Source: Patescibacteria group bacterium (GTDB lineage: Bacteria > Patescibacteriota > Patescibacteriia > UBA1558 > GWA2-36-10). From it: a stretch of 64,000 bases of DNA. The stretch is taken from the NCBI GenBank assembly GCA_041665505.1, contig JBAYIR010000001.1:83108-147107 (forward strand). Direction: 5' to 3'. Shown here piece after piece: positions 54 through 59,620 of the stretch. Numbering within the stretch: the stretch's first letter is position 1; every line of letters begins with the position of its first letter. The notes under the pieces were generated by a model. That model saw only the letters and a list, made by a program, of their open reading frames with translations, was not told the DNA's origin and did no database searches. The position numbers and the translations under genes are program-made.

Positions 54-959
54 TTGGATTTTTTAGCTATAACAAAAAAAGAAGATGCTGATTATTATTT
101 AAATGAAGAATTAAACAGTGTTATATCATTTGAGGGTAATTTTAAAAAAATAAGTAGTGAAGAGGTTTTAATGATAGGTACTGATTATATAGTGAAATCA
201 GGTGATAAATATATGGCGATTAGTTTTAATATGTTTACTGGTAATGAAACAGCCTATCAGACTGCTCTAGCTAAAGCTCAAGAAGTAATCAAGACTTTTT
301 CTCTTTCCGCTTCTCCTCACCAAACAGAAACTGTTGTTGAAGATACAGAAAAGCCTAAAGTGCCAGCAGAAGTTACAAAACAGCCAATATATGTTCCTCC
401 TGTTAAAGTTGGTAGTTTGGCCAATAGGCTCAAAGGACGCATTCTTTTACAAGTGGAGTCCCATGGTGAGGCTTGGTATGTGAAGCCAGAAACAGGTACA
501 AGAATGTATATGAAAGATGGAAGTGCTGCTTATGGTATGATGAGAGAGTTAGGTCTGGGCATTACCAACGCTGATCTAGCCAAAATCCCAGTTGGTCTTG
601 AGTCAAGATTTGAATGCCAAGATTCTGATAGTGACGAACTATGTGACAAATTAGAGCAAGGATTAGGTTCAGATCCTAGTGATAGTGACTCGGACAATGA
701 TGGCTATAATGATGGCACAGAGATTAACACCGACCATAATCCTTTAGGAGTAGGGAAAATGTCTTATAATAATACCTTAATTAATCGTTTGCAAGGTAAA
801 ATAGTTTTACAGGTAGAATCTCGTGGAGAAGCTTGGTATATAAATCCAGTTGATGGTAAAAGATACTATATGCCAGATGGACCATCAGCTTATCAGATTA
901 TGCGTTATCTTAGTTTGGGTATTACTAATAAAGATTTAGAATCAATATCTGCAGAATAA
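54..959 (+). CDS. hypothetical repeat protein with TSP3-like acidic Ca-binding motif and two ~55-aa internal repeats
   Basis: ORF track 301 aa. DSDSDxD/DNDGYNDG acidic stretch between two near-identical modules LQVESxGEAWY..G.RYYM.DG..AY..MR.LGLGITN (DNA repeats ~421-590 and ~781-950). Low-GC native composition. May be 5'-truncated by window edge. Confidence 0.5.
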   Translation: MDFLAITKKEDADYYLNEELNSVISFEGNFKKISSEEVLMIGTDYIVKSGDKYMAISFNMFTGNETAYQTALAKAQEVIKTFSLSASPHQTETVVEDTEKPKVPAEVTKQPIYVPPVKVGSLANRLKGRILLQVESHGEAWYVKPETGTRMYMKDGSAAYGMMRELGLGITNADLAKIPVGLESRFECQDSDSDELCDKLEQGLGSDPSDSDSDNDGYNDGTEINTDHNPLGVGKMSYNNTLINRLQGKIVLQVESRGEAWYINPVDGKRYYMPDGPSAYQIMRYLSLGITNKDLESISAE

Positions 960-999
960 TAGCAAACTTGGATAGTAGTTTTAAATATTTTAGGCAAAT

Positions 1000-1029
1000 G
1001 CTCTTGGTCAAGGACCAAGAGCATTTTAT
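1000..1029. terminator. bidirectional rho-independent terminator (palindromic hairpin gctcttggtc-aa-ggaccaagagc, flanked by T/A runs)
   Basis: Perfect 10-bp inverted repeat seen in sequence directly after stop of 54..959 and downstream (minus strand) of small ORF 1054..1158. Confidence 0.6.
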
Positions 1030-1053
1030 ATGTGATCGTCTGGCTAGCTCCGT

Positions 1054-1158
1054 CTAGTGGCGAAGGCCTGCTCCCATTGTGATGGACAGGAGCAGAAAAC
1101 CAATGACCTTTGACGAAAGCCAGACTAAGGTGTATTTCCCAAATTTTTTGTGCGACAT
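1054..1158 (-). CDS. 34-aa hydrophobic peptide (MSHKKFGKYTLVWLSSKVIGFLLLSITMGAGLRH) in GC-elevated mini-cassette
   Basis: Minus strand reads AAGGAGG-aaacagc(7 nt)-ATG at 1172..1156. Upstream perfect TTGACA(1269..1264)-17-TATAAT(1246..1241). One predicted TM helix. Longer 71-aa track ORF 1054..1269 would run through its own promoter. Confidence 0.4.
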   Translation of the reverse strand: MSHKKFGKYTLVWLSSKVIGFLLLSITMGAGLRH

Positions 1159-1240
1159 GCTGTTTCCTCCTTGACTCGAGTAGCTGGCGGGTGGACAGTT
1201 GTTGGTGGCACAAATCAAATAATGAACGAAATAGTTATTT

Positions 1241-1269
1241 ATTATATTATGATTATTTTTAGCTGTCAA
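1241..1269 (-). promoter_or_regulatory. perfect consensus sigma70 promoter TTGACA-17-TATAAT (minus strand)
   Basis: Plus strand attata at 1241-1246 and tgtcaa at 1264-1269, exactly 17 nt apart; counted base by base. Confidence 0.6.
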
Positions 1270-1364
1270 TAATTTTTTATATTAGGTCTATATTTATAGT
1301 TATAGATTGATTTCCAAAAATTATTTAAAAATGTTATAATACCCCTACAGTTTAATATTAAATT

Positions 1365-1751
1365 TTGCGTATTTGTATGGTGAAAAATGACTATATAGTG
1401 AGTTTTTTGTTAATAATTGCCATAGTTTTTAGTATTATTTTTTATTTCAATGCTCGTCCACTAGTTAAGGACAAAAATGTCTTACAATATACCGCTGGTT
1501 GCAGTTCTGACAAAATAGATGCCTCAATTTATAGTTTGAGAGGGGATACTAGTTTGATCGGGGCTTTTATTAGTTTTGATAAAGTACCAATCGATGACAC
1601 TATCAGAGCAGAGTTGACCAAACTGGGAGTATTTTTAAGGGAGGACTCTTGGATATTTGATTATGTTTTGGCAGAAATTCCTACTGAGGCGCTGTGTAAT
1701 TTAGCTGATTATGATTTTGTGACGGGTGTTTTTATACCCCAAGAAAATTAA
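1365..1751 (+). CDS. hypothetical N-terminally membrane-anchored protein
   Basis: 128-aa ORF, hydrophobic N-terminus (FLLIIAIVFSIIFYF), low-GC native composition; no recognisable family. Confidence 0.35.
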   Translation: MRICMVKNDYIVSFLLIIAIVFSIIFYFNARPLVKDKNVLQYTAGCSSDKIDASIYSLRGDTSLIGAFISFDKVPIDDTIRAELTKLGVFLREDSWIFDYVLAEIPTEALCNLADYDFVTGVFIPQEN

Positions 1752-4242: not shown

Positions 4243-5805
4243 ATGTCAGATATAAATAAAAAAAATATGCCTTTGGCGCTTTTGATACTGGATGGTTGGG
4301 GTATTTGGAATAAAAAAGAAGGTAATGCCATAGCTCTAGCTCATACACCGGTTATAAATAATCTTTATGAAAAATATCCTAATACCTTACTACAGGCTTC
4401 GGAAAAATATGTTGGCTTACCAGCTAATCAGCCGGGTAATTCCGAGGCTGGGCATATGAATATTGGGGCGGGTCGAGTGATTGAGCAAGACGCGGTTATA
4501 ATTTCCAAGAGTATCAACAATGGCACTTTTTTTAAAAATCCAGCTTTTTTGCAAGCAGCTCATCACGTCAGTGAATATAATTCAGATGTCCATTTGATGG
4601 GGCTTTTGTCTGATGGTTCTAGCCCTCATTCGCACGATGATCATCTTTTATCATTGATTAGTTTTTTTCTTAGTCGGACCAAGCAAAATATTTATCTTCA
4701 TCTTTTTACAGATGGACGTGATTCGCCACCCTTTGCCGCTTTAAAAATTTTGAGTCAATATACTTCAATATTCAATAGCAATAGAGTAAAAATTGCTACT
4801 GTCATGGGGCGTTTTTATGCTATGGACAGAAAAAAATCTTGGCCTAGAACAAAATTAGCTTATGAGGCTTTGGTTATGGGGAAAGGTCATCAAGTTGAAA
4901 ATCCTATTGAAGCGGTAAATCAAGCTTATAATCGAGGGGAAAGTGATGAATATATTTTACCAACAGTCATAGTTGATAAAGATAAAAGTCCGATTGCTAC
5001 TATTAATAGTAATGATGCTTTAGTATTTTTTAATTTAAGATCAGATCGAGCTCGTCAATTGACCAAAATTTTTGGGCAAGAAGATTTTAACAAAAAAAAT
5101 CCAGGTTCATTTAAGTTGATCAAAAAAATTGAAAATTTATTATTTGTGGCTTTGACTGATTTTGGTCCAGATTTAGAAAGGGTGCTAACTGCTTATCCAG
5201 GTATTGATATTTCCGATACTTTACCCATGGCGCTTAAAGATATTAGACAGTGTTATATTGCGGAAACAGAAAAATATGCTCACGTTACTTATTTTTTTAA
5301 TGGTGGTTATGATCATCCAGTTGGTGGTGAAGATTGGGTCAATATTCCATCTAAAGATGTAGCTTCTTATGCCCAAAAACCAGAGATGAGTACTTTTGAA
5401 ATTGCGGAAGAGGTGATAAAATATGTTCAAGAGGATAAATACGATTTTATTATGGTCAATTTTGCTAGTCCAGATATGGTTGGACATACGGGAGATTTGG
5501 CAGCCGGAATAAAAGCAGTAGAATTTGTAGATAAGGCTGTCGGACAAATTATTGATGCTATTTTAGCTAAGCATGGTACTATAATTATTACTGCTGACCA
5601 TGGTAATGTGGAAGAAATGATTAACTTGGAGACCAAAGAAATTGATACTGAGCATTCCAAAAATCCAGTACCACTTATTATTGTTAGCCATGATAATTTT
5701 AAATTAGTGACTAATGGCCAATTAGCAAATATTGCTCCAACTATTTTAGATATTTTAGGCCTGCCTCAACCTAAATTAATGACTGATAAATCTTTAATTG
5801 TTTAA
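4243..5805 (+). CDS. gpmI: 2,3-bisphosphoglycerate-independent phosphoglycerate mutase (copy 1)
   Basis: 520 aa; LLILDGWG, AETEKYAHVTYFFNGG, SPDMVGHTG, ITADHGN motifs of iPGM. Confidence 0.9.
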   Translation: MSDINKKNMPLALLILDGWGIWNKKEGNAIALAHTPVINNLYEKYPNTLLQASEKYVGLPANQPGNSEAGHMNIGAGRVIEQDAVIISKSINNGTFFKNPAFLQAAHHVSEYNSDVHLMGLLSDGSSPHSHDDHLLSLISFFLSRTKQNIYLHLFTDGRDSPPFAALKILSQYTSIFNSNRVKIATVMGRFYAMDRKKSWPRTKLAYEALVMGKGHQVENPIEAVNQAYNRGESDEYILPTVIVDKDKSPIATINSNDALVFFNLRSDRARQLTKIFGQEDFNKKNPGSFKLIKKIENLLFVALTDFGPDLERVLTAYPGIDISDTLPMALKDIRQCYIAETEKYAHVTYFFNGGYDHPVGGEDWVNIPSKDVASYAQKPEMSTFEIAEEVIKYVQEDKYDFIMVNFASPDMVGHTGDLAAGIKAVEFVDKAVGQIIDAILAKHGTIIITADHGNVEEMINLETKEIDTEHSKNPVPLIIVSHDNFKLVTNGQLANIAPTILDILGLPQPKLMTDKSLIV

Positions 5806-5811
5806 AACAAA

Positions 5812-7389
5812 ATGAAAAGACCTCGACCAGTAGTGCTTGTTATATTAGATGGTTTTGGTATTGCGCCTCCTTCGAGAGCCAATGCTATTTCTTTGGCTAA
5901 AACCTCAAACTTTGATAAGTATTCTCAAAATTATCCAATTATGCCACTAGCAGCTAGTGGTGAAGCAGTCGGCCTTTCTTGGGGCGAAATGGGTAATTCT
6001 CAAGTTGGTCATCTTTCTTTGGGTTCTGGGCTAATTCCTTATCAAAATTTGCCTCGTATCACCAAAGCTATTACTGACGGAGAATTTTATAAAAATGAAG
6101 CTTTTCTTAAAGCTTGTGATAATGCTAAAAAAAGCGAAGCGGCTTTGCATATTATTGGTTTAGTCAGCTCCGGTGGAGTGCATAGCTACAATGAGCATTT
6201 GTATTCGCTGATAGAATTAGCTCACCAGCAAAAAGTGGAGAGAATTTTTATCCATGCTTTTTTAGATGGCAGGGATACCCCTTATAATAGTGGTATTAAT
6301 TTTATTAGTAAGTTGCAAGAAAAATTAAAAAATATAGGGACTGGTACTATTGCTAGTTTGAGTGGTCGTTTTTGGGCTATGGATAGAGATAATCGTTGGG
6401 ATAGGGTAGAGAAAGCTTGGCGAGCTATGGTAGACGGAGTATCTGATGAGAAATTTGAAGATCCTTTAGGAGCTATTCAAAAATCTTATGATAAAAAAGT
6501 ATATGATGAGGAATTTGTGCCAACAATAATATTGAATGATTTGGGTAAGCCCAAAGGTCTTATCAAAGATGGTGATAGCGTGATATTTTTTAACTTTAGA
6601 TCAGACAGGGCCAGGCAGCTTACTCAGGCTTTGACTTTACCAGGTTTTGAAAAATTCAAAAGACAGTATTTTAAAAATTTGGTGATGGTCACTATGACCG
6701 AATACGAAAAAGATTTGCCAGTGACAGTAGCCTTTCCACCTTTGGTCATTGAGATGCCTTTGGCTAGAGTTTTGTCTGAAGCAGGATTAAAACAACTTCA
6801 TATTGCGGAAACAGAAAAATATGCTCACGTTACTTACTTTTTTAACGGTGGTCAGGAAAAAATTTATGAAGGAGAGGATAGGGTACTAGTGCCTTCACCA
6901 CAAGTGGTCTCTTATGATCAAAAACCAGCTATGTCATCTAGAGAGCTTACTTCCAAGATAAATCAAGCAGTTAAAGAAGGGCAATATGATTTTATTGTAG
7001 CCAATTATGCCAGTCCAGATATGGTTGGACATACCGGCAATATCCAAGCGACTATAGAGGCTATAGAAATATTGGATCAACTAATTGGCGAATTAGTAGA
7101 TACAGTTTTGTCATACAATGGTTTGGTGCTTATTACCGCTGACCATGGTAATGCCGAAAATCTTTATGACTTGCAGAGTGGTGAGATAAACAAAGAGCAT
7201 TCCAATAATCCAGTACCATTTTTTATTATCGGTGATGATTTTGCTGGCAAGAGTGTCTTAGCTGGTAATGTCGGGACCGATCTCAGTCACGTTACACCAG
7301 TTGGTGTTTTAGCTGATGTGCCACCAACTATACTCAAAATTATGGGTATCAAAAAACCACCAGAAATGACCGGTAGTTCTTTGATTTAA
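5812..7389 (+). CDS. gpmI: 2,3-bisphosphoglycerate-independent phosphoglycerate mutase (divergent tandem paralog)
   Basis: 525 aa; VVLVILDGFG, identical AETEKYAHVTYFFNGG and SPDMVGHTG/ITADHGN motifs; otherwise diverged from copy 1. Confidence 0.9.
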   Translation: MKRPRPVVLVILDGFGIAPPSRANAISLAKTSNFDKYSQNYPIMPLAASGEAVGLSWGEMGNSQVGHLSLGSGLIPYQNLPRITKAITDGEFYKNEAFLKACDNAKKSEAALHIIGLVSSGGVHSYNEHLYSLIELAHQQKVERIFIHAFLDGRDTPYNSGINFISKLQEKLKNIGTGTIASLSGRFWAMDRDNRWDRVEKAWRAMVDGVSDEKFEDPLGAIQKSYDKKVYDEEFVPTIILNDLGKPKGLIKDGDSVIFFNFRSDRARQLTQALTLPGFEKFKRQYFKNLVMVTMTEYEKDLPVTVAFPPLVIEMPLARVLSEAGLKQLHIAETEKYAHVTYFFNGGQEKIYEGEDRVLVPSPQVVSYDQKPAMSSRELTSKINQAVKEGQYDFIVANYASPDMVGHTGNIQATIEAIEILDQLIGELVDTVLSYNGLVLITADHGNAENLYDLQSGEINKEHSNNPVPFFIIGDDFAGKSVLAGNVGTDLSHVTPVGVLADVPPTILKIMGIKKPPEMTGSSLI

Positions 7390-10687: not shown

Positions 10688-10728
10688 AAAACCTTTAATC
10701 TAGCTAGATTAAAGGTTTTTTTATTTTG
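10688..10728 (+). terminator. rho-independent terminator of mltG (AT-rich hairpin plus T-run)
   Basis: aaaccttta-atctagctagatt-aaaggttttttt seen directly after stop. Confidence 0.6.
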
Positions 10729-10768
10729 AGTAAAAAAATGAGGCGGGCACCTGTGGGGGTGCCCGCCT
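10729..10768 (-). terminator. GC-rich hairpin terminator of foreign ORF 10798..11991 (minus strand)
   Basis: aggcgggcacc-tgtgggg-gtgcccgcct palindrome preceded on plus strand by A7 (T-run on minus), ~30 nt downstream of the minus-strand stop. Confidence 0.6.
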
Positions 10769-10797
10769 TTGTGCGACCTGCGGTCGTACTGCGGATG

Positions 10798-11991
10798 TCA
10801 GTCTCCGTTGACCTCACCAATGATCCGGCGATGGTCACTGGTCTGAGCGACCAGTTTTCCGGCGACGATTGATATCGCCACCAGATCTCCCAGGAGAGTC
10901 ATGTCGAGCAGCTCCTGTGAGCCGTCCCGTCGCAGGAGTACCAGTCGGCTAGCCGACTGAACTCTGATCTCCCGGTACTGACCGGGCTCAGGGGCTATCT
11001 CAGCTACCGGCAGCGTCGGCTCTTGGTCGACGACCGGGGGCCAGATCTGCTGGTTGAGATCGACCGGGGGCCAGATCTGCTGGTCGACATCGACCGGGTC
11101 GATGTCCTGCCGAAGTCGGATTTCTCCGCCCTCGGAAGTGGTGGTTCGCGTACCAACTCGGACGTCGTTGCCACACCTCATCAGTGTGAGCGACGACGTG
11201 CCATCGGAAAGATAGCACCGCCAGGCCGGTTGCCAGTCGGGAATGTTCTTCTGCTGGCTTAGACCGCCAGCATAGCTCACCACCATGGGTCCACGTACGT
11301 CGACGGCCTCAATCCGGTCGATGCTCACTTGGCCGGGGAGCTTGGTTGATTCAGCGACCGTCATTGCGTTGCGCTCTACCTCGTACTGCCGAGCGAAGTG
11401 CTCAGCCGCTGTTTGGGCGGTTAGGATGCCGCCTGGCGCCTGATCTGGCCCCGAGTAGGGGTCAGCCATCTGTCGGAGGTAGCCTTCTTCGATCTCGTTT
11501 TGTCGACGATTGTCTTCCGCATCAGCATGCTGGGCCCTCTGGATGCCTTTACCTAGCAGGTAGGCCAGCGTAAACACCGCCATGATGACCGTGATGGCCA
11601 TCATCCAGCGTACCAAGGCGGGTGCCGTGGATCTTTCGGCCTGAGTCGTCGGCAGAGGAGATACAGTGGTGTCGGCCGGAATGGTCGGCACCATAGCATC
11701 GAGGCTAGCTCTTCGGAATTCGAAGAGGCGAACCAATGATGCTGGGATGATCAGCTTGTCACCAGGAATAATCATGTCCGGATCCGCCAGTTGCGGATTG
11801 GACTTGACCAACTCGGCCCACAAGCTCTTCTCTCCGAACGCCACTTGCCACTGACCGAGACGGTCAGCATCATCAACGATATACTCGCCGGATCCGTCGG
11901 CGAGCTTGTAAAGCCCACCTTCCGGAACCTGAGCACCGCAGATGCTGACGATGGTCAGTAGTAGCATGGCGCAGGACAGAATCCGTAGCAT
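10798..11991 (-). CDS. high-GC secreted/membrane protein: signal peptide, LysM-like motif, TM helix, C-terminal domain with tandem QQIWPPV repeat (foreign cassette A1)
   Basis: Start likely ATG 11991 (GGAGG at 12003..11999, 7-nt spacer), giving 398 aa, rather than the track start 12078. MLRILSCAMLLLTIVSICGAQ signal peptide; WAELVKSNPQLADPDMIIPGDKLIIP resembles LysM C-terminal half; hydrophobic LVRWMMAITVIMAVFTLAYLL. GC far above neighbours. Confidence 0.55.
   Translation of the reverse strand: MLRILSCAMLLLTIVSICGAQVPEGGLYKLADGSGEYIVDDADRLGQWQVAFGEKSLWAELVKSNPQLADPDMIIPGDKLIIPASLVRLFEFRRASLDAMVPTIPADTTVSPLPTTQAERSTAPALVRWMMAITVIMAVFTLAYLLGKGIQRAQHADAEDNRRQNEIEEGYLRQMADPYSGPDQAPGGILTAQTAAEHFARQYEVERNAMTVAESTKLPGQVSIDRIEAVDVRGPMVVSYAGGLSQQKNIPDWQPAWRCYLSDGTSSLTLMRCGNDVRVGTRTTTSEGGEIRLRQDIDPVDVDQQIWPPVDLNQQIWPPVVDQEPTLPVAEIAPEPGQYREIRVQSASRLVLLRRDGSQELLDMTLLGDLVAISIVAGKLVAQTSDHRRIIGEVNGD
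11039..11098. repeat. perfect-ish 30-bp tandem direct repeat inside cassette A1 (ggccagatctgctggt[t/c]ga[g/c]atcgaccggg x2)
   Basis: Seen directly; encodes VDVDQQIWPP / VDLNQQIWPP on minus strand. Confidence 0.7.
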
Positions 11992-12143
11992 AATGCTACC
12001 TCCAAAATGAATAGGGGAAACTTCAGTTACAGGGATCTGTAACCGGGAAGATTGAAATGTTTTTCGCTCTTCCCCCAAATACCCTATAGATACTTGGGGT
12101 AAAAGCGAATATTAACTTATAAATTGGCACTATACAATATATA

Positions 12144-12172
12144 ATTGTAACATATTTTTATAATTATGTCAA
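12144..12172 (-). promoter_or_regulatory. near-consensus sigma70 promoter TTGACA-17-TACAAT driving cassette A1 (minus)
   Basis: plus tgtcaa 12167-12172 and attgta 12144-12149, 17-nt spacer. Confidence 0.5.
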
Positions 12173-12203
12173 TACAATAAAATTGAGCTTAAGTTGTTTA
12201 TTA

Positions 12204-12232
12204 TTGACAATTATTATATTTTATGATATAAT
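12204..12232 (+). promoter_or_regulatory. perfect consensus sigma70 promoter TTGACA-17-TATAAT driving cassette A2
   Basis: ttgaca 12204-12209, tataat 12227-12232, spacer exactly 17; AGGAGG at ~12288 then ATG 12303. Confidence 0.6.
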
Positions 12233-12302
12233 ACTATATTGGTTCGAGAACTGAAGTCTGTAAACCTGGCCAAGAAATTGGCCTTACCAGGAGGAAAGAA
12301 TC

Positions 12303-13037
12303 ATGTTGTTTAACAAGAACACTTCCAAGAAGCTTGCTCAGGGTTTTCTGATTCTGATCGGGTCGTTGTTGATTCTGGCTGTCGTCATCGCCTTGGTCGG
12401 CGAGGCCAAGGCTGGTCCGATTCCGCGCTGGGATCACAACAGTGACATTGGTATCTGGAACGAGAGCACCCACCCGCCGCGGGCAGAGGTCAGACTCAAC
12501 CTGATCAACGCCCAATCCACTGGTGTGGAATCTCGTCTCCAAGGCGTCTGCTACGACCTCCTGGAGAAGAAGGACAAACCCTACTACCTGTACTTGGGCT
12601 TCGGCTTCCAGAGCGGACACCTGGACATCGAACCGGCTCTTGGCTGGTCCTTTCGCGACAATGAGTGGGTGGCGGCCTTTCGCACTTATCCCGAGTGGGA
12701 GAAGTGGCGGGGCTACTCCAACTGCGAGTATCAACTCGAGACCAAGAGCTGGTACTATTTGGCTCAAATCGAAACCCACTTCAACCACTGGGTAGAGTGT
12801 GGTGCCGAGATGGAGGGTTGGGGCGACATCGACGACCAGTTGACCAGCAATGGTGCTGGTATCAATGTTGTTTTCAACACCCATCCGCGGTGGGGCAATC
12901 CGGACTCAAAACTCCGGATAGAAGCTGGCCTTCAGCTCCGAGAGATGGACTCGAAGTACAAACCGCAGCTCATCGTTCGATTCATATTTAGCCCGGAGAT
13001 GGAGGAGCACACGCCAGATCCTAGGAGGTGGAGATGA
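12303..13037 (+). CDS. high-GC hypothetical protein, N-terminal TM/signal anchor, Trp/Gly/Tyr-rich beta-type domain (foreign cassette A2)
   Basis: 244 aa; LAQGFLILIGSLLILAVVIALVG hydrophobic N-terminus; strong SD; first ~10 codons AT-richer than remainder; no family recognised. Confidence 0.55.
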   Translation: MLFNKNTSKKLAQGFLILIGSLLILAVVIALVGEAKAGPIPRWDHNSDIGIWNESTHPPRAEVRLNLINAQSTGVESRLQGVCYDLLEKKDKPYYLYLGFGFQSGHLDIEPALGWSFRDNEWVAAFRTYPEWEKWRGYSNCEYQLETKSWYYLAQIETHFNHWVECGAEMEGWGDIDDQLTSNGAGINVVFNTHPRWGNPDSKLRIEAGLQLREMDSKYKPQLIVRFIFSPEMEEHTPDPRRWR

Positions 13038-13042
13038 CATTT

Positions 13043-13088
13043 GGCCCGCCGCGTGCAACAGCATGCGGCGGGCCTCAACTTTTGTCTT
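13043..13088 (+). terminator. GC-rich hairpin terminator of cassette A2
   Basis: ggcccgccgc-gtgcaacagcat-gcggcgggcc followed by tcaacttttgtctt. Confidence 0.55.
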
Positions 13089-13229
13089 AGTTATAACAGG
13101 ATTGACAATATTTTATTTTTACTATATAATAATCACATAAATTCCTAGAAGGGCTAGGAAGTAAATAATTAAATAGCCAAAGACAGTAGGTTTCTAGCTA
13201 ATATTAGCCAAGAATTAAATATCCTGCCG

Positions 13230-23228: not shown

Positions 23229-23354
23229 TTCGACTCCGTTCTGCTCTGCAGAACTTCGCTCATGGTCTGCGACCACAAAAGTAAATTAAAATATAAGGTG
23301 TCGAATGTCCTGAGCGGAGTCCTGAGTTTATCGGAGGACGAAGTCGAAGGACAT
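23226..23354 (+). ncRNA. conserved structured tRNA 3'-trailer element, copy 1 (unknown family)
   Basis: Starts at the tRNA-Val CCA with TTCGACTCCG. Shares hairpin, ACTTCGCTCA/TGAGCGRAGT long-range pair, TGGTC/GACCA stem and CATTCGACTCC/GG(A/T)GTCGAATG closing helix with copies at 28003..27891(-) and 58824..58946(+). Followed by weak hairpin plus T7. Confidence 0.5.
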
Positions 23355-23383
23355 TAAAAATCAGTTTTATTTAAGGACTGTTT

Positions 23384-23430
23384 TTTTGTTGAAAAAAGAA
23401 GGCCGCCGCCACGTCAGACGTGGCGGCGGC
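23384..23430 (-). terminator. GC-rich palindromic terminator of cassette B1
   Basis: gccgccgccacg-tcaga-cgtggcggcggc 12-bp stem; A-run on plus (T-run on minus) at 23391-23397. Confidence 0.6.
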
Positions 23431-23445
23431 ATGAAGCGATATGAC

Positions 23446-24111
23446 CTAGCCGAGGTCGGCTTGGTCGAGGAGGCTCTTCTCGTATCTCTCGGCCACTTCG
23501 AGCTGATGCATCAGCCCATCGATGGCCATCTGGATGAGGTCTTCCCGGCAGGTCGGGACAGCTACAAAGCGTCTAGCCGCTTTGTCAGTTGGGAACATCA
23601 CAACCATCCACCAGCCTGCGGTAATTCCGCCGATTCCTTTGACCTTGCTACCGTAGGTGGTTGCCTTACCATCGACGATATCGTCGGGATTCTCCAAGCC
23701 GTAGCCATGGAAGCAGCGATAGTCGGGACCATGACGCTTGAATCGCAGGACCGCCACGACGGGTATTCTCACGTATTGATGGTACGTGGCAGCAGAGCAG
23801 CTGGTCGCCCTGACGATCTCGTTGTAGAACCCATCTTTGCGCTGAATTCTGATCAGCTGGTCAGAGAGGTCTCCCAGGACCGTCTTGATCTCCGAGCTGT
23901 CTGCAATCGGCCGTGCTATGACCGTGGTGGCCTGGGGGTTGACCTTGATGTCCAGCAGTGCAAAGCCGGCTTTTGCCAAGCTGATGGGGGACTCCGGATC
24001 GAGGGTGCCAGTAGCTACATCGTCTCTACCGATTCCCCAACGAAAACAATGATTGCCGTCGAGCCGTACCACACCAGTGGTGTAGATGGGGTCACAATTT
24101 TGTGCCTGCAT
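23446..24111 (-). CDS. high-GC hypothetical cytoplasmic protein (foreign cassette B1)
   Basis: Preferred start ATG 24111 with GGAGG(24123..24119)-7 nt-ATG, giving 221 aa; track start 24147 lacks SD. Natural-looking composition, unlike the plus-strand antisense ORF 23386..24153. No family recognised. Confidence 0.5.
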   Translation of the reverse strand: MQAQNCDPIYTTGVVRLDGNHCFRWGIGRDDVATGTLDPESPISLAKAGFALLDIKVNPQATTVIARPIADSSEIKTVLGDLSDQLIRIQRKDGFYNEIVRATSCSAATYHQYVRIPVVAVLRFKRHGPDYRCFHGYGLENPDDIVDGKATTYGSKVKGIGGITAGWWMVVMFPTDKAARRFVAVPTCREDLIQMAIDGLMHQLEVAERYEKSLLDQADLG

Positions 24112-24193
24112 TGGGAATCCTCCAGATTTAGTTGCATTTGTCTGCATTTATGATGCCTGCTGGCACCATTGTTCCTAGAGTTAGGAACAAAGT

Positions 24194-24222
24194 ATTATAC
24201 TATTATTTATTTTTTTTGTCAA
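24194..24222 (-). promoter_or_regulatory. perfect consensus sigma70 promoter TTGACA-17-TATAAT driving B1 (minus)
   Basis: plus attata 24194-24199, tgtcaa 24217-24222, 17-nt spacer counted. 5' UTR begins with 7-bp hairpin gttccta-actc-taggaac. Confidence 0.6.
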
Positions 24223-24235
24223 TGGTTGTTATATT

Positions 24236-24278
24236 TAAAGAAAATTAAGACCGCCGCGCATCCAGGGACGCGCGGCGG
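24236..24278 (-). terminator. GC-rich hairpin terminator of cassette B2
   Basis: ccgccgcgc-atccagggac-gcgcggcgg 9-bp stem, A/T-rich tract on minus side after hairpin. Confidence 0.55.
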
Positions 24279-24290
24279 CTACGGAGGATA

Positions 24291-24791
24291 CTACGGAAGT
24301 ATCTTCCAGACGGTAGGATTTCTTTTCCGGAAACTCTTGATGCTCTGCTCTCGGTGCATATTTTTGGCCAACACTACGGCCAAGATCAGAAGCATCAGAG
24401 CCATGAGGCTCTTGAACAGAGCCAAAATCCCTTGACCTAAAGGAGCGTGGATGGTGTGGACGGACATCGTCGCAACCAGTTTGTCTCCTTTGGTCTCGTA
24501 GACCATGAACTGGTACTGACCGAAGACGATCAGTGCTTCTTCGCCACTTTTGATGGTGGCGAGGTGCCGGCTGTTCTTGATGACCTTGAAGTAACACTCC
24601 TTGGAGTCGATGGTGACCAGCGCATGTTCGCTAATCTTGAAATCGACACTGTCGCCGTCCCGAAGGACAGCTCCAGTCACAGGAATCCGGTCATTCTCCG
24701 AACGAATATGGAGCTCGATAGCTCCTTCGCTCGCACGGACGACGGTGGTGGCACAGATCAGAATGGCGATGGTCAGAAGAAGAGTCTTCAT
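24291..24791 (-). CDS. high-GC secreted protein with N-terminal signal peptide and C-terminal TM anchor (foreign cassette B2)
   Basis: 166 aa; MKTLLLTIAILICATTVVRASEG signal peptide; C-terminal LMALMLLILAVVLA hydrophobic helix; AAAGGA SD 8 nt before ATG. Confidence 0.5.
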   Translation of the reverse strand: MKTLLLTIAILICATTVVRASEGAIELHIRSENDRIPVTGAVLRDGDSVDFKISEHALVTIDSKECYFKVIKNSRHLATIKSGEEALIVFGQYQFMVYETKGDKLVATMSVHTIHAPLGQGILALFKSLMALMLLILAVVLAKNMHREQSIKSFRKRNPTVWKILP

Positions 24792-24894
24792 GTCGCGAGT
24801 CCTTTCGCTTGCAGTTTCAGGTTCCTTCCCTCTTTATTTTAAAGGCTTTTGAGCCTTTTGTGACGTCAATGAGCTTGCTTTAAGCAATTATCTA

Positions 24895-28077: not shown

Positions 28078-28206
28078 GTATGAAAAATTAAAATTTGTAA
28101 ATTATCAATGATCTGGCCTATCTATCTTGGAGGCGAAGCCTGGAAGGCTGCCTGTCCCGCGTAGCTTTAGCGAAGCGGGGAGCTATAGGCGCATGTTTTT
28201 TTGAGC

Positions 28207-28232
28207 TACCTGCCTGCCGGCAGGCAGGTAGG
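28207..28232. repeat. perfect 26-bp palindrome ctacctgcctgc-cg-gcaggcaggtag, flanked by partial copies of the tRNA-Lys 5' end
   Basis: Seen directly; taggcgcgtatgaaaaattaaa at 28232-28253 repeats 28071-28092; gagctataggcgca at 28182-28195 repeats tRNA positions 1-13. Confidence 0.6.
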
Positions 28233-28298
28233 CGCGTATGAAAAATTAAATGTAAAATACGGAGATTAGTATATACATTTTTGTTTGTATTGTCAATA

Positions 28299-33730: not shown

Positions 33731-33890
33731 AAATATATTTGATTCAGCCATTCGCGAAGGGCTGGATTGACAAAATGGGGTTTTTGTGTTAAAAATTATA
33801 GTTATTCGCGATTCATAGGCTTTGGGCTTATGGGTCACTGTTCCCCAGGCAAGTTGAAGCACCCCGAACCGAACATGGAGGTTTTAAGTC

Positions 33891-34613
33891 ATGACTCGCA
33901 AGCCCGTGATTCAAACAGCTCTCGAAAGCCTTGACCGTCAGATTGATGACAGAGTGGTCATCGACATTGACGGCGATGTGGATGAGGCCCAGCACATGCT
34001 TTACGCGTTTCGCACTTCGGTGGAAGAGGTGATCTTCGAAGGAGACAACACCGAAGAGTGTCGTCGGCAGTGCCTGGCCAACCTGACCAAGGTCGGCTAC
34101 CTGGAAGAGGCCATCAAGGAGTTGATGACTTTCTCCAAGCGGAGTCGGCGAGCGGTTCGTCGGTGGCTCTATGGGGAAGTTGTTCCTCAGCGAGTTGATT
34201 GGCTGCGGTGGCAGTACTGGCTTCGCGCCAAGGGGTACTACACGCGCGAGCTTGACCACATGCCCAACAGCTTCTTCCAGTTGCGCAAGCACATCCTCTG
34301 TGGCGATATCAGCTTCGCGGTTGCCGCCAAGGAGCTTGGTTGCACTCAGAAGGTTCTTCGGGGCATTCTGAACAATGAGGTGGACAGAGCTGTGATCATC
34401 AGTATCATCGGCAATGTCCACCATCTGGTGGCCAAGATCAACCGGCAGATCAGCCATCGGGAGATTGTCGGTTACATGGAGGTCTATTTGGATTCCGACG
34501 GCGAGTTTGCCGAAGTGAATCGGCGCTACAACCTGGACAACCAGAAGCGTCGTCGTAAGGTGGCTCACAAAGCTGCCAAGGCTCGCCGCAAGGCCAGGTC
34601 TTCCAAGAGCTAG
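33891..34613 (+). CDS. high-GC hypothetical protein with strongly basic C-terminal tail (foreign cassette C)
   Basis: 240 aa; GGAGG 9 nt upstream of ATG; C-terminus KRRRKVAHKAAKARRKARSSKS suggests nucleic-acid binding; TTGACA at 33767 with weak TAAAAA -10 at 17 nt; GC-rich hairpin 34638-34670 downstream. Opposite-strand ORF 33828..34568 judged antisense artefact. Confidence 0.5.
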   Translation: MTRKPVIQTALESLDRQIDDRVVIDIDGDVDEAQHMLYAFRTSVEEVIFEGDNTEECRRQCLANLTKVGYLEEAIKELMTFSKRSRRAVRRWLYGEVVPQRVDWLRWQYWLRAKGYYTRELDHMPNSFFQLRKHILCGDISFAVAAKELGCTQKVLRGILNNEVDRAVIISIIGNVHHLVAKINRQISHREIVGYMEVYLDSDGEFAEVNRRYNLDNQKRRRKVAHKAAKARRKARSSKS

Positions 34614-34760
34614 GCCACCACGGCCAGCGGCTAGATTTACCCCGGACTGCGTCCAAGCAGCCCGGGGTAAAAAATTGTAAAAATTAAGGCAAAATTAGCC
34701 AGAATTATTAAGTTATGATATTATATATCAACAAATACACCTTAAATCAGGCTTTAGATT

Positions 34761-42427: not shown

Positions 42428-42465
42428 TTTAGTTTACACCCATCCCTGTGAAAGGAGGGAAAACC

Positions 42466-42717
42466 ATGTCTAGAGGCAGCATCGACAGAAGAGAAATCTT
42501 CATTGACATCACAGTGCCTGTCGAGCACTCTCAGGCATTTCTGGCCCGCCTCACAGCGGACAAGCAGTACAGTGTAGACGAGCTACACTGCCACCAAGCC
42601 CAGGATGGGTATCACATCAGGATTACCGCCCAGGTAATCGACCAGGTAAAATGCCTCCAATTTATCAAAGCTCTGGCCATAGAGCTTGGTATGGACGGCA
42701 TGACCAACAAGGCCTAG
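42466..42717 (+). CDS. high-GC small cytoplasmic protein, 83 aa (foreign cassette D)
   Basis: AGGAGG(42453-42458)-gaaaacc(7 nt)-ATG 42466; track ORF 42448 begins at a GTG inside the SD. MSRGSIDRREIFIDITVPVEH...; no family recognised. Confidence 0.5.
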   Translation: MSRGSIDRREIFIDITVPVEHSQAFLARLTADKQYSVDELHCHQAQDGYHIRITAQVIDQVKCLQFIKALAIELGMDGMTNKA

Positions 42718-42726
42718 TTTGATGAG

Positions 42727-42757
42727 AAGACCAGCACGGAGGCTGGTCTTTAATTTT
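42727..42757 (+). terminator. hairpin terminator of cassette D
   Basis: agaccagc-acgga-ggctggtct followed by ttaatttt. Confidence 0.6.
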
Positions 42758-51582: not shown

Positions 51583-51617
51583 AAACACTCTGGGCACAAG
51601 CTCAGGGTGTTTTTTTG
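51583..51617 (+). terminator. terminator after aspS
   Basis: acactctgggcacaagctcagggtgt hairpin followed by T7. Confidence 0.5.
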
Positions 51618-51649
51618 ACCGGCCTTTTTGTTTGTAGTATAATAAAATA

Positions 51650-51806
51650 AATATAAAGTTCTTCCAGCTATTCACGTCTTGATAAACATCATTTATCATG
51701 ATGGCGTGGAAACCGTCAGCCCAAATGCGCCTCAGGTGTCTCCTAGCGCTTGCGCGCTGACGGAATAGGGGGCCGGCGTTCGTCGGCCCCCGTCCTTTTT
51801 TACTGC
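51650..51806 (+). ncRNA. candidate GC-rich small RNA with own promoter (TTGACC-17-TATAAT at 51615-51643) and strong intrinsic terminator
   Basis: Long-range pairing ccgtcagc(51712-51719)/gctgacgg(51758-51765) encloses gcgc-rich hairpins; terminator gggggccg-gcgttcgt-cggccccc plus T6 at 51769-51805. Only a 20-aa SD-less ORF inside. Confidence 0.35.
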
Positions 51807-59019: not shown

Positions 59020-59123
59020 ATATAGTTCGTAATTCCTATTCGTATGAGTAGGTGGCTCTGAATGAGCAACGGGGTTTAGGCTTCTTTCCCCAACCAAGGA
59101 AGCGTGTTCTTTGAGGAGGCTGT

Positions 59124-59414
59124 ATGGCCAAGCAATTTGATATCACTGGTGGTCCCTCGCGGGAAGAGCTCTTTGACGCTCTGCGCCTGAGGCATGAGAA
59201 CAGGAAGCCTGTCTTCCACGTGCCGTACATCAGAGGAGGCTGTTTCGTAGTCAGTGTCGATGCCATCGGCATCGAAGACGGCAGTGGCGACAACTGGCTG
59301 TTGCAGCTACATGACCCTAATGGTCTTCTCGGGGCCAATCATTTGAAGGCCTACTTCAACACTGTCACGCGCAGGGGTTGGATGAAGCCCTTGGACTTGA
59401 AGCCCTTGGACTGA
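59124..59414 (+). CDS. high-GC small protein, 96 aa (foreign cassette E)
   Basis: GAGGAGG 4 nt before ATG; MAKQFDITGGPSREELFDALRLRHENRKPVFHVPYIRGGCFVVSVDAIGIEDGSGDNWLLQLHDPNGLL; no family recognised; antisense ORF 59036..59338 rejected. Confidence 0.5.
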   Translation: MAKQFDITGGPSREELFDALRLRHENRKPVFHVPYIRGGCFVVSVDAIGIEDGSGDNWLLQLHDPNGLLGANHLKAYFNTVTRRGWMKPLDLKPLD

Positions 59415-59428
59415 CGACAACATTGGTG

Positions 59429-59483
59429 CCGCGCGCAGAAGTCATCGGACTTCTGCGCGCGGGCCACAATTACTTTTTTTTTC
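59429..59483 (+). terminator. long GC-rich hairpin terminator of cassette E
   Basis: gccgcgcgcagaagtc-atcg-gacttctgcgcgcgggc then T9 about 8 nt later. Confidence 0.5.
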
Positions 59484-59620
59484 AGCTATTTTAGCTGTTT
59501 TTTTGTTTGTTGGACCTATATCTTGACAATTTCTCTGAAATAGAGTATATTCTGCTTTGTTTTAATATAAACAATATTTTATATATAAAAGCGATTAATT
59601 ATTTAAAAAGGTGAAAATTT

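Follow-up and report, generated by a model that had tools for sequence, protein, structure and literature searches.

What is the function of a 34-codon open reading frame (ORF) that has an exact consensus promoter and a perfect Shine-Dalgarno (SD) sequence entirely to itself? The question is raised by a short, GC-rich stretch near the start of a 64,000-nucleotide segment of DNA from a Patescibacteria group bacterium (assembly GCA_041665505.1, contig JBAYIR010000001.1, positions 83,108 to 147,107 of the forward strand), which was analyzed at its full length and is called the window here. We conclude with high confidence that the stretch contains a real gene, which defines a new family of small membrane proteins. 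The overall explanation that we favor, at about even probability, is a monocistronic gene for a 34-residue membrane protein that is abundant and, rather than acting as a toxin, assists or modulates as a subunit either a larger membrane protein or the membrane itself. The elements of this small gene are as follows, numbered from the first nucleotide of the window.

1264..1269, minus strand: -35 hexamer TTGACA of the small-gene promoter
1241..1246, minus strand: -10 hexamer TATAAT, separated from the -35 hexamer by a 17-nt spacer
1159..1234, minus strand: predicted 5′ untranslated region (UTR) of ~76 nt, with the transcription start placed ~7 nt past the -10 hexamer
1230-1221, minus strand: leader motif TTCGTTCATT, in the small-gene 5′ UTR
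1166..1172, minus strand: SD sequence AAGGAGG, followed by the 7-nt spacer AAACAGC and the ATG at 1158-1156
1054..1158, minus strand: small ORF, 34 codons plus TAG (1056-1054), product MSHKKFGKYTLVWLSSKVIGFLLLSITMGAGLRH
1027..1053, minus strand: 3′ UTR, 27 nt from the end of the ORF to the palindrome
996..1026, both strands: perfect palindrome with a 14-bp stem and a 3-nt loop, also located 3′ of a convergent plus-strand protease gene that ends at 959

The signals described in a first-pass annotation of this stretch (TTGACA-17-TATAAT, AAGGAGG-7-ATG and the 34-residue ORF) are all present on the strand that it gave. The small-gene promoter scored 12/12 in a promoter scan. Exact copies of TTGACA-N17-TATAAT occur five times in the window, compared to 0.04 expected from shuffles, and AAGGAGG-N7-ATG occurs twice, compared to 0.11 expected. 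The palindrome, which had been proposed as a shared terminator, exists just beyond the interval assigned to the unit (1031-1270), but it failed the criteria of the terminator scan on both strands, because the minus-strand tail past the stem, in our own reading of the sequence, is merely UUUGCCU, a poor U-tract. It probably terminates transcription in both directions, for the convergent protease gene and for the small gene, its role for the minus-strand transcript being presumed. Five orthologous loci have their own hairpin and U-tract right past the ORF. Two longer frames over the small gene were rejected as spurious, namely a 71-residue TTG ORF (1054..1269) whose start falls inside the -35 hexamer, and a 102-residue TTG ORF (905..1213, minus strand) that is in another frame and reads through the terminator. 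A leader peptide or attenuator was also rejected, as there is no downstream gene on the minus strand.

Orthologues were identified by inspection of the minus strand in intergenic regions of conserved synteny, first at the related loci L004 and L005, then at metagenome loci retrieved via the neighboring 124-residue protein, and then at loci of its homologues. Nine distinct ORF variants of 34–41 residues were obtained, all at the same genomic place in related Candidatus Komeilibacteria, the group within the candidate phyla radiation (CPR)/Patescibacteria in which the relatives of its Pgk place the organism of the window. The variants and the loci that carry them are listed below.

Window: MSHKKFGKYTLVWLSSKVIGFLLLSITMGAGLRH
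L096: MSHKKFGKYTLVWLSSKVIGFLLLSIAMGARLRH
L085, L097 and L098: MSHEKFGKFTLAWLGYKVVGFLLLCISLGAHYTHHH
L084 (P0003): MTTKEQAIHKAFEDYTKTWLIIGAISMAVVCMLH
L004, L089 and L103: MTNKQDVIHDTIGKLALWWSLSKIGLLFLICILRALQS
L005 and L092: MKNKHDVHDTIGKFAIWWSISKLGLLLLLCVIKAIAQH
L100: MTKNKQDAFHDAVGKFAIWWNLTKIGLLFLVCIFKALHP
L101 and L102: MKNQEKLHEAIGKFALIYAVSKIGLLLLICAMVAIHVARF
L090 and L091 (P0004): MTREQKQAFGYGFGRFALQYKLWKFIFLFSLIIGLAARS

Alignment of these peptides reveals a conserved core, H-[DEK]-x-[IVF]-G-K-[FYL]-[AT]-[LI]-x-[WY]-x-x-[ST]-K-[IVL]-G-L-L-[LF]-L. At the loci of all nine variants, the small ORF lies on the strand opposite to a gene for a 121–125-residue membrane protein and the pgk operon, with the promoters arranged back-to-back. 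Past the 121–125-residue gene, the operon consists of pgk, eno and two gpmI genes. In the window, this side of the locus begins with two features.

1311..1340, plus strand: divergent promoter TTTCCA-18-TATAAT with TG, which serves the 124-residue gene and pgk-eno-gpmI and is back-to-back with the small-gene promoter
1377-1751, plus strand: divergent gene for the 124-residue protein, NCBI WCV71_00475, annotated as hypothetical, 'Patescibacteria group bacterium'

The sequence of the divergent promoter is strongly conserved in all relatives. The 121–125-residue gene is the sole constant neighbor of the small gene, and relatives that lack the small ORF retain it. On the other side of the small gene, the flank varies by lineage. 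The window has a gene for a trypsin-like protease there; in L004 and L103 this place is taken by a gene for a PKD/T9SS-type protein, in L005, L100 and L101 by one for a histidine kinase, and in the P0004 contig by one for a hydrolase. The peptides retain 32–36% identity where Pgk retains 57–59% and the 124-residue protein 64–72%, such that divergence is roughly in step. The fixed locus and the divergence in step with its neighbors indicate that the small gene is native and vertically inherited. The small ORF is absent from L003, L087 and L088, where the intergenic region is clean and short, and also from L086 and L093–L095; the 860-kb contig Ga0233448_1000001 likewise lacks it. A search of pgk-linked loci by nhmmer with the whole intergenic region found similarity limited to the AT-rich promoter region. 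As far as found here, the family appears to be confined to a subclade of Candidatus Komeilibacteria.

The variants establish that the ORF is coding, to the extent that sequence comparison allows. Sense frame 0 is the sole stop-free frame in all seven loci counted, each of the other five frames being interrupted in at least one lineage. All insertions and deletions are in frame, with one codon (3 nt) between L004 and L005 and 6–7 codons between the two subclades, and ATG, GTG and TTG are all in use as start codons. The ratio of non-synonymous to synonymous substitution rates (dN/dS, Nei-Gojobori) is 0.14 between the window and L096 (four synonymous and two non-synonymous changes), 0.21 between the window and L085, and 0.18–0.41 within the L004/L005/L100/L101 group, while two off-frames give values of about 1 or more. 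The expression signals are maintained along with the frame. A promoter matching at 10–12 of 12 positions is located 71–83 nt upstream of the start in six of six loci scanned, the -35 TTGAC(A/T/C) is retained across all orthologous loci, and the 5′ UTR is 64–76 nt long in six lineages. The sequence (A)AGGAGG precedes the ATG, GTG or TTG by 5–7 nt in eight of the nine variants, L090 having GGAAAGGA instead. The conserved ORF, the purifying selection and the in-frame indels bear out the earlier description of an independent expression unit whose product is a small hydrophobic peptide with one helix. A remnant signal peptide was ruled out by the conserved stop position, the terminators that orthologues have of their own and the selection on the peptide.

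The 5′ end of the transcript also contains conserved motifs. The leader motif TTCGTTCATT is common to the window, L085 and L090, and L096 has a version of it that differs at one position. In the second subclade (L004, L005, L100, L101 and L103), the leader contains GTTCTTT-N4-5-ACAACGTTGT(A). This second motif is a perfect 10-nt palindrome that is unable to form a hairpin, and a dimeric regulator might therefore use it as an operator.

Automatic annotation of the two contigs, from ENA and Logan, that contain the exact sequence does not list the ORF, and the exact peptide is absent from a collection of 15 billion proteins. Two homologues have been called as hypothetical proteins in JGI data, and a profile search with six variants recovered only these two known variants. 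No match to Pfam or NCBIfam was detected at E ≤ 10 with six variants, and only non-significant matches were found in PHROG (E about 0.035). Searches of PDB sequences returned nothing meaningful, tblastn against phage and plasmid collections returned no match, and a HMMER scan of 1.84 billion representatives returned merely two spurious tandem-repeat proteins. No description of this small-protein family was found in the literature. In L096, a 108-residue ORF (1101-1427, minus strand) is annotated across the small gene on the same strand in another frame; its counterpart in the window is the 102-residue TTG ORF rejected above. This annotation is probably a mis-call that hides the true small gene.

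The GC content is 0.50 at 1031-1215, compared to 0.32 at 960-1030, 0.18 at 1216-1376 and 0.357 for the whole window, and the elevation over ~180 bp between AT-rich flanks was thus correctly noted before. The contrast then drawn between a GC island and native sequence does not hold, however, since orthologues occupy the same locus in relatives and some of them are AT-rich; the GC content of the transcript varies from 0.27 to 0.49 by lineage. The elevation is partly due to a raised GC content at third codon positions (GC3), which is 0.59 in the small ORF and 0.47–0.77 in six of the seven loci counted, while the pgk, eno, gpmI, rplJ and rplL genes of this genome have values of 0.23–0.31. The raised GC3 points either to selection for the structure or stability of the mRNA or to the legacy of an older composition. 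Positions 900-1400 are 100% identical in two independent assemblies, the 350-kb contig k141_749216 of ENA ERZ27249449 and a contig of Logan SRR6484324, both of which encode the Pgk of the window, and the stretch is thus natural and no artefact of the window. An engineered or chimeric insert, a candidate prompted by a CTCGAG beside the perfect SD and by the GC-richer islands elsewhere in the window, was rejected on this identity and on the presence of two of those islands on the ENA contig. The broader explanation that there is no gene here, and that the ORF arose by chance, as a remnant signal peptide or through a foreign or assembly-derived insert, would agree with its omission by gene calling on both contigs, with the missing exact peptide in the protein collection and with a GC content above that of the flanks. 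It would not account for nine variants in which frame, SD and promoter are all intact and most of which have a terminator of their own, nor for purifying selection on the peptide, the two homologues called in JGI data, the identity of independent assemblies and the AT-rich orthologues at the same locus. We consider this explanation refuted by the comparative data and assign it hardly any probability.

The product is predicted to be a membrane protein. The maximum Kyte-Doolittle hydropathy over 19 residues is 1.47–2.1 in six variants (1.71 in the window) and exceeds 1.6 in five of the six. AlphaFold2 (AF2), run with a shallow alignment of three sequences, predicts one continuous helix spanning residues 4–33 with a mean pLDDT of 81, and a single membrane helix is quite probable on the basis of these predictions. 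The helix is preceded by a polar N-terminus of 8–16 residues with Lys and His, and followed by a C-terminal tail of 1–6 residues. The positive-inside rule, applied to a modest charge bias, suggests a tail-anchored topology with the N-terminus inside. Tryptic peptides of the product include YTLVWLSSK and VIGFLLLSITMGAGLR.

These features can be combined into a putative course of expression. A transcript of ~210–240 nt would start near 1234 from the consensus, sigma-70-type promoter and end at the palindrome (996-1026). Translation of the small ORF is expected to be efficient, given a perfect SD that is unpaired, by prediction, about half of the time. The product would then be inserted in the cytoplasmic membrane by its single helix, with the short polar His/Lys N-terminus in the cytoplasm, the conserved G-K-x-x-L-x-W at the interface and 1–6 residues past the helix. 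The gene is apparently expressed very strongly, and the product is probably abundant.

The closest known parallels are small single-pass membrane proteins that modulate larger ones, such as AcrZ, MgtS, KdpF and CydX of E. coli and Prli42 of Listeria. Like the product described here, they have at most 50 residues and one hydrophobic helix, the N-terminus being short and polar and the C-terminal tail nearly missing; they are under purifying selection within their lineage and are routinely missed by annotation. In contrast to these proteins, the product has no sequence similarity to them in the Pfam, NCBIfam and PDB searches, and it is expressed in a CPR host from an exact consensus promoter and a perfect SD. 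The small gene also differs from those of KdpF and CydX in being monocistronic rather than part of a partner's operon. The product may be a membrane-protein regulator, which the first-pass annotation listed among its candidates. We rate a non-toxic accessory or modulator role at even probability or marginally below, based on the analogy to AcrZ, MgtS, KdpF and CydX and on the absence of toxin-antitoxin features. Several observations weigh against such a role. Neither a partner protein, nor an operon link, nor homology to characterized small membrane proteins was found, and the proposed function is thus argued by analogy. The absence of the gene in some relatives implies that it is dispensable and encodes no essential subunit. 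Finally, the GC3 of 0.59, the mRNA folds that are better than those of shuffles and the predicted pairing of the SD with the 3′ UTR in L004 and L005 would also suit a translationally gated toxin mRNA or a dual-function RNA.

A type I toxin-like peptide, which had been among the candidates of the first-pass annotation, would depolarize or permeabilize the membrane of its own producer and would be curbed by an antisense RNA or by an mRNA fold that hides the ribosome-binding site until processing. At 34–41 residues, the product is within the range of hydrophobic membrane peptides of fewer than 60 residues typical of such toxins. The small gene resembles those of Hok, TisB, Fst, BsrG and AapA1 in size, in a hydrophobic helix with interspersed Lys, in a long 5′ UTR (64–76 nt) and in an mRNA more structured than its shuffles, the folding z-scores being -2.1 in the window, -2.0 in L085, -2.1 in L004 and -6.6 in L005 (about -2 in four lineages). 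A 5′–3′ pairing that, in the manner of these toxins, would hide the SD is predicted in two lineages, where the SD and start pair with the sequence just past the stop, with an unpaired probability for the SD of 0.29 in L004 and 0.12 in L005. The raised GC3, the patchy presence and the position at a synteny break are also consistent with a toxin. However, sequestration of the SD is not predicted in the window, L085 and L090 (unpaired probability 0.53 in the window, 0.37–0.53 among the three), nor in L084. The search suggested earlier, for a plus-strand antisense RNA overlapping the SD, gave no support for one: a promoter scan of six orthologous loci found no opposite-strand promoter at a conserved position, only isolated weak plus-strand matches (9–10 of 12) in L084, L005 and L090, although a non-canonical promoter could escape such a scan. 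Complementarity to the small gene elsewhere in the 64 kb reaches at best 12–13 nt (E ≥ 0.16), and the ORF has no paralog in the window or in any fetched locus. Unlike the toxin genes above, the small gene is present as a single copy at a fixed locus over deep divergence, in lineages whose Pgk proteins are merely 57–59% identical, and long-term retention at a single locus is unusual for type I toxins. Its product matches no toxin family, the Pfam and NCBIfam searches having included Hok/Gef, Ldr, TisB, Ibs and Fst among other type I families, and a cell would hardly tolerate a toxin gene that has a perfect promoter and SD but no antitoxin. As the defining antisense RNA was sought and not found, we do not classify the gene as part of a type I toxin-antitoxin pair, which is not supported; a toxin gated by mRNA folding alone is a minority possibility, and a type I toxin-like peptide in general is, in our estimate, unlikely.

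A bacteriocin-like or signalling peptide was another suggestion made earlier. CPR bacteria are commonly episymbionts, and an exported membrane-active peptide (a leaderless bacteriocin, a cytolysin like the phenol-soluble modulins, or a signal) could be directed by such a cell against its neighbors or host. The expression signals are very strong for so tiny a product, an amphipathic or hydrophobic helix containing Trp and Lys, as would suit this role, and the N-terminus of the L004 type, QDVIHDTIGKLALWW, may on our reading bear a loose resemblance to staphylococcal delta-toxin. Yet no lineage has a transporter, immunity or processing gene linked to the small gene, and the flank away from the operon is different in each; the bacteriocin or signalling proposal is not supported. 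Moreover, our reading of the aligned peptides shows no conserved double-glycine leader, the core is a plain hydrophobic helix suited to stable insertion, and the phage and plasmid collections contain no homologue; an exported peptide appears very improbable. A combined version, in which the product is a highly expressed membrane-active effector, either a self-toxin gated by the mRNA fold alone or a peptide like the phenol-soluble modulins and delta-toxin that an episymbiotic Komeilibacterium inserts into host or neighbor membranes to obtain metabolites, is a long shot. If true, either form would add a new class to the small effectors of CPR bacteria. The remaining alternative places the function in the RNA, such that the ~210-nt transcript would be a small RNA of dual or mainly regulatory function that acts by pairing with other RNAs or binding a protein, with the ORF secondary. 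The promoter-to-terminator unit has the size of a small RNA, and a transcript of ~200 nt with a short ORF recalls RNAIII/delta-toxin of S. aureus, SR1/SR1P of B. subtilis and SgrS/SgrT of E. coli, as does predicted folding in excess of background. The folds beat shuffles in most lineages, the motifs at the 5′ end (TTCGTTCATT; GTTCTTT-N4-5-ACAACGTTGT) are conserved and GC3 is raised. In the window, the minus strand has a folding z-score of -2.7 and the segment from the ORF to just before the terminator one of -3.2, the 3′-UTR segment GACGGAGCUAGCCAGAC being predicted to pair with codons 12–16 (GUCUGGCUUUCGUC). In contrast to the three regulatory RNAs, it is the peptide that is conserved here, amid many synonymous changes, and not the RNA sequence or structure: nucleotide similarity between the subclades is confined to the promoter region (nhmmer), the predicted structures vary among lineages, and no target complementarity was found in the window. 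Rfam has no match over 1027-1240 at gathering thresholds, none at E ≤ 10 on 900-1400 and none in six related loci. The probability of a dual-function or mainly regulatory RNA is slight. A GC-rich intergenic stretch in an AT-rich genome commonly points to a structured RNA, but a structured non-coding RNA (6S, SRP or similar) was rejected on these Rfam results, on the coding signature and on the plus strand, which folds no better than its shuffles (z = -0.8).

In our reading, the product represents a new, lineage-specific family among the small single-pass membrane proteins of bacteria. The CPR/Patescibacteria have tiny genomes in which a large share of the genes has no known function, and almost all of their small proteins are unannotated; standard gene calling misses or mis-calls this conserved, selected protein of 34–41 residues. 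The family offers the study of membranes in an uncultivated lineage a concrete candidate that can be tested, and it overturns no current view. The locus also indicates that a GC island with a consensus promoter marks real expression units in this genome.

The divergent 124-residue protein was also modeled. It consists of an N-terminal membrane helix and a domain (AF2 pLDDT 80) whose best structural match is to subtilisin propeptides, with an I9-like fold. The top Foldseek match in the PDB is 2z58_B (E 7.7e-3, TM-score 0.74, rmsd 2.4 Å, 62 aligned columns). No significant Pfam match was detected, the match to PF11337/DUF3139 at E 0.087 being under the family cutoff. Based on the model, the protein would be a membrane-anchored, stand-alone propeptide or an inhibitor-like protein ahead of pgk-eno-gpmI. 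The divergent promoter region that it shares with the small gene hints at co-regulation of the two. Further along the same operon, two tandem genes for cofactor-independent phosphoglycerate mutase are located 3′ of eno (4243-7389, plus strand). They encode proteins of 520 and 525 residues, each with Metalloenzyme and iPGM_N domains, and the tandem gpmI duplication is also present in the P0004 contig.

Additional GC-richer islands occur elsewhere in the window, at 10700-13120, 23350-24850, 33870-34710, 42430-42750 and 59040-59500, where GC content peaks at 0.58–0.68 in 120-nt windows compared to 35.7% overall. Most of them directly follow an exact or near-exact TTGACA-17-TATAAT, and those that we inspected contain, by our own reading, an SD of the form GGAGG and a terminator hairpin rich in GC. 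The islands at 10.8–13.0 kb are likewise found on the ENA contig k141_749216. The ORFs in the islands are as follows.

10798-11994, minus strand: 398 residues, also on the ENA contig
12303-13037, plus strand: 244 residues, also on the ENA contig
23446-24147, minus strand: 233 residues
24291-24791, minus strand: 166 residues
33891-34613, plus strand: 240 residues
42466-42717, plus strand: 83 residues
59126-59414, plus strand: 96 residues

No Pfam match was found for the island ORFs scanned. An ancient transfer from a high-GC source is one possible origin of the islands.

Two shorter stretches have similar signals. At 28094-28296 (minus strand), a GC-rich stretch with a TTGACA-17-TATACT promoter is located just upstream of tRNA-Lys. 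It repeats the tRNA-Lys leader and the first ~13 nt of the tRNA, with ttaatttttcatacGCGCCTA and GCGCCTATAGCTC each occurring twice, and it contains the palindrome CCTGCCTGCCGGCAGGCAGG, similar to CTGCCTATCGGCAGGCAGG in L086. This stretch may have arisen by partial duplication of the tRNA, or it may be a repeat element. At 51615-51800 (plus strand), TTGACC-17-TATAAT is followed by ~150 nt of GC-rich sequence without an Rfam match, at the end of which are a strong hairpin, GGGGGCCGGCG...CGTCGGCCCCC, and a T-run; this stretch is a candidate for a small RNA or a tiny ORF.

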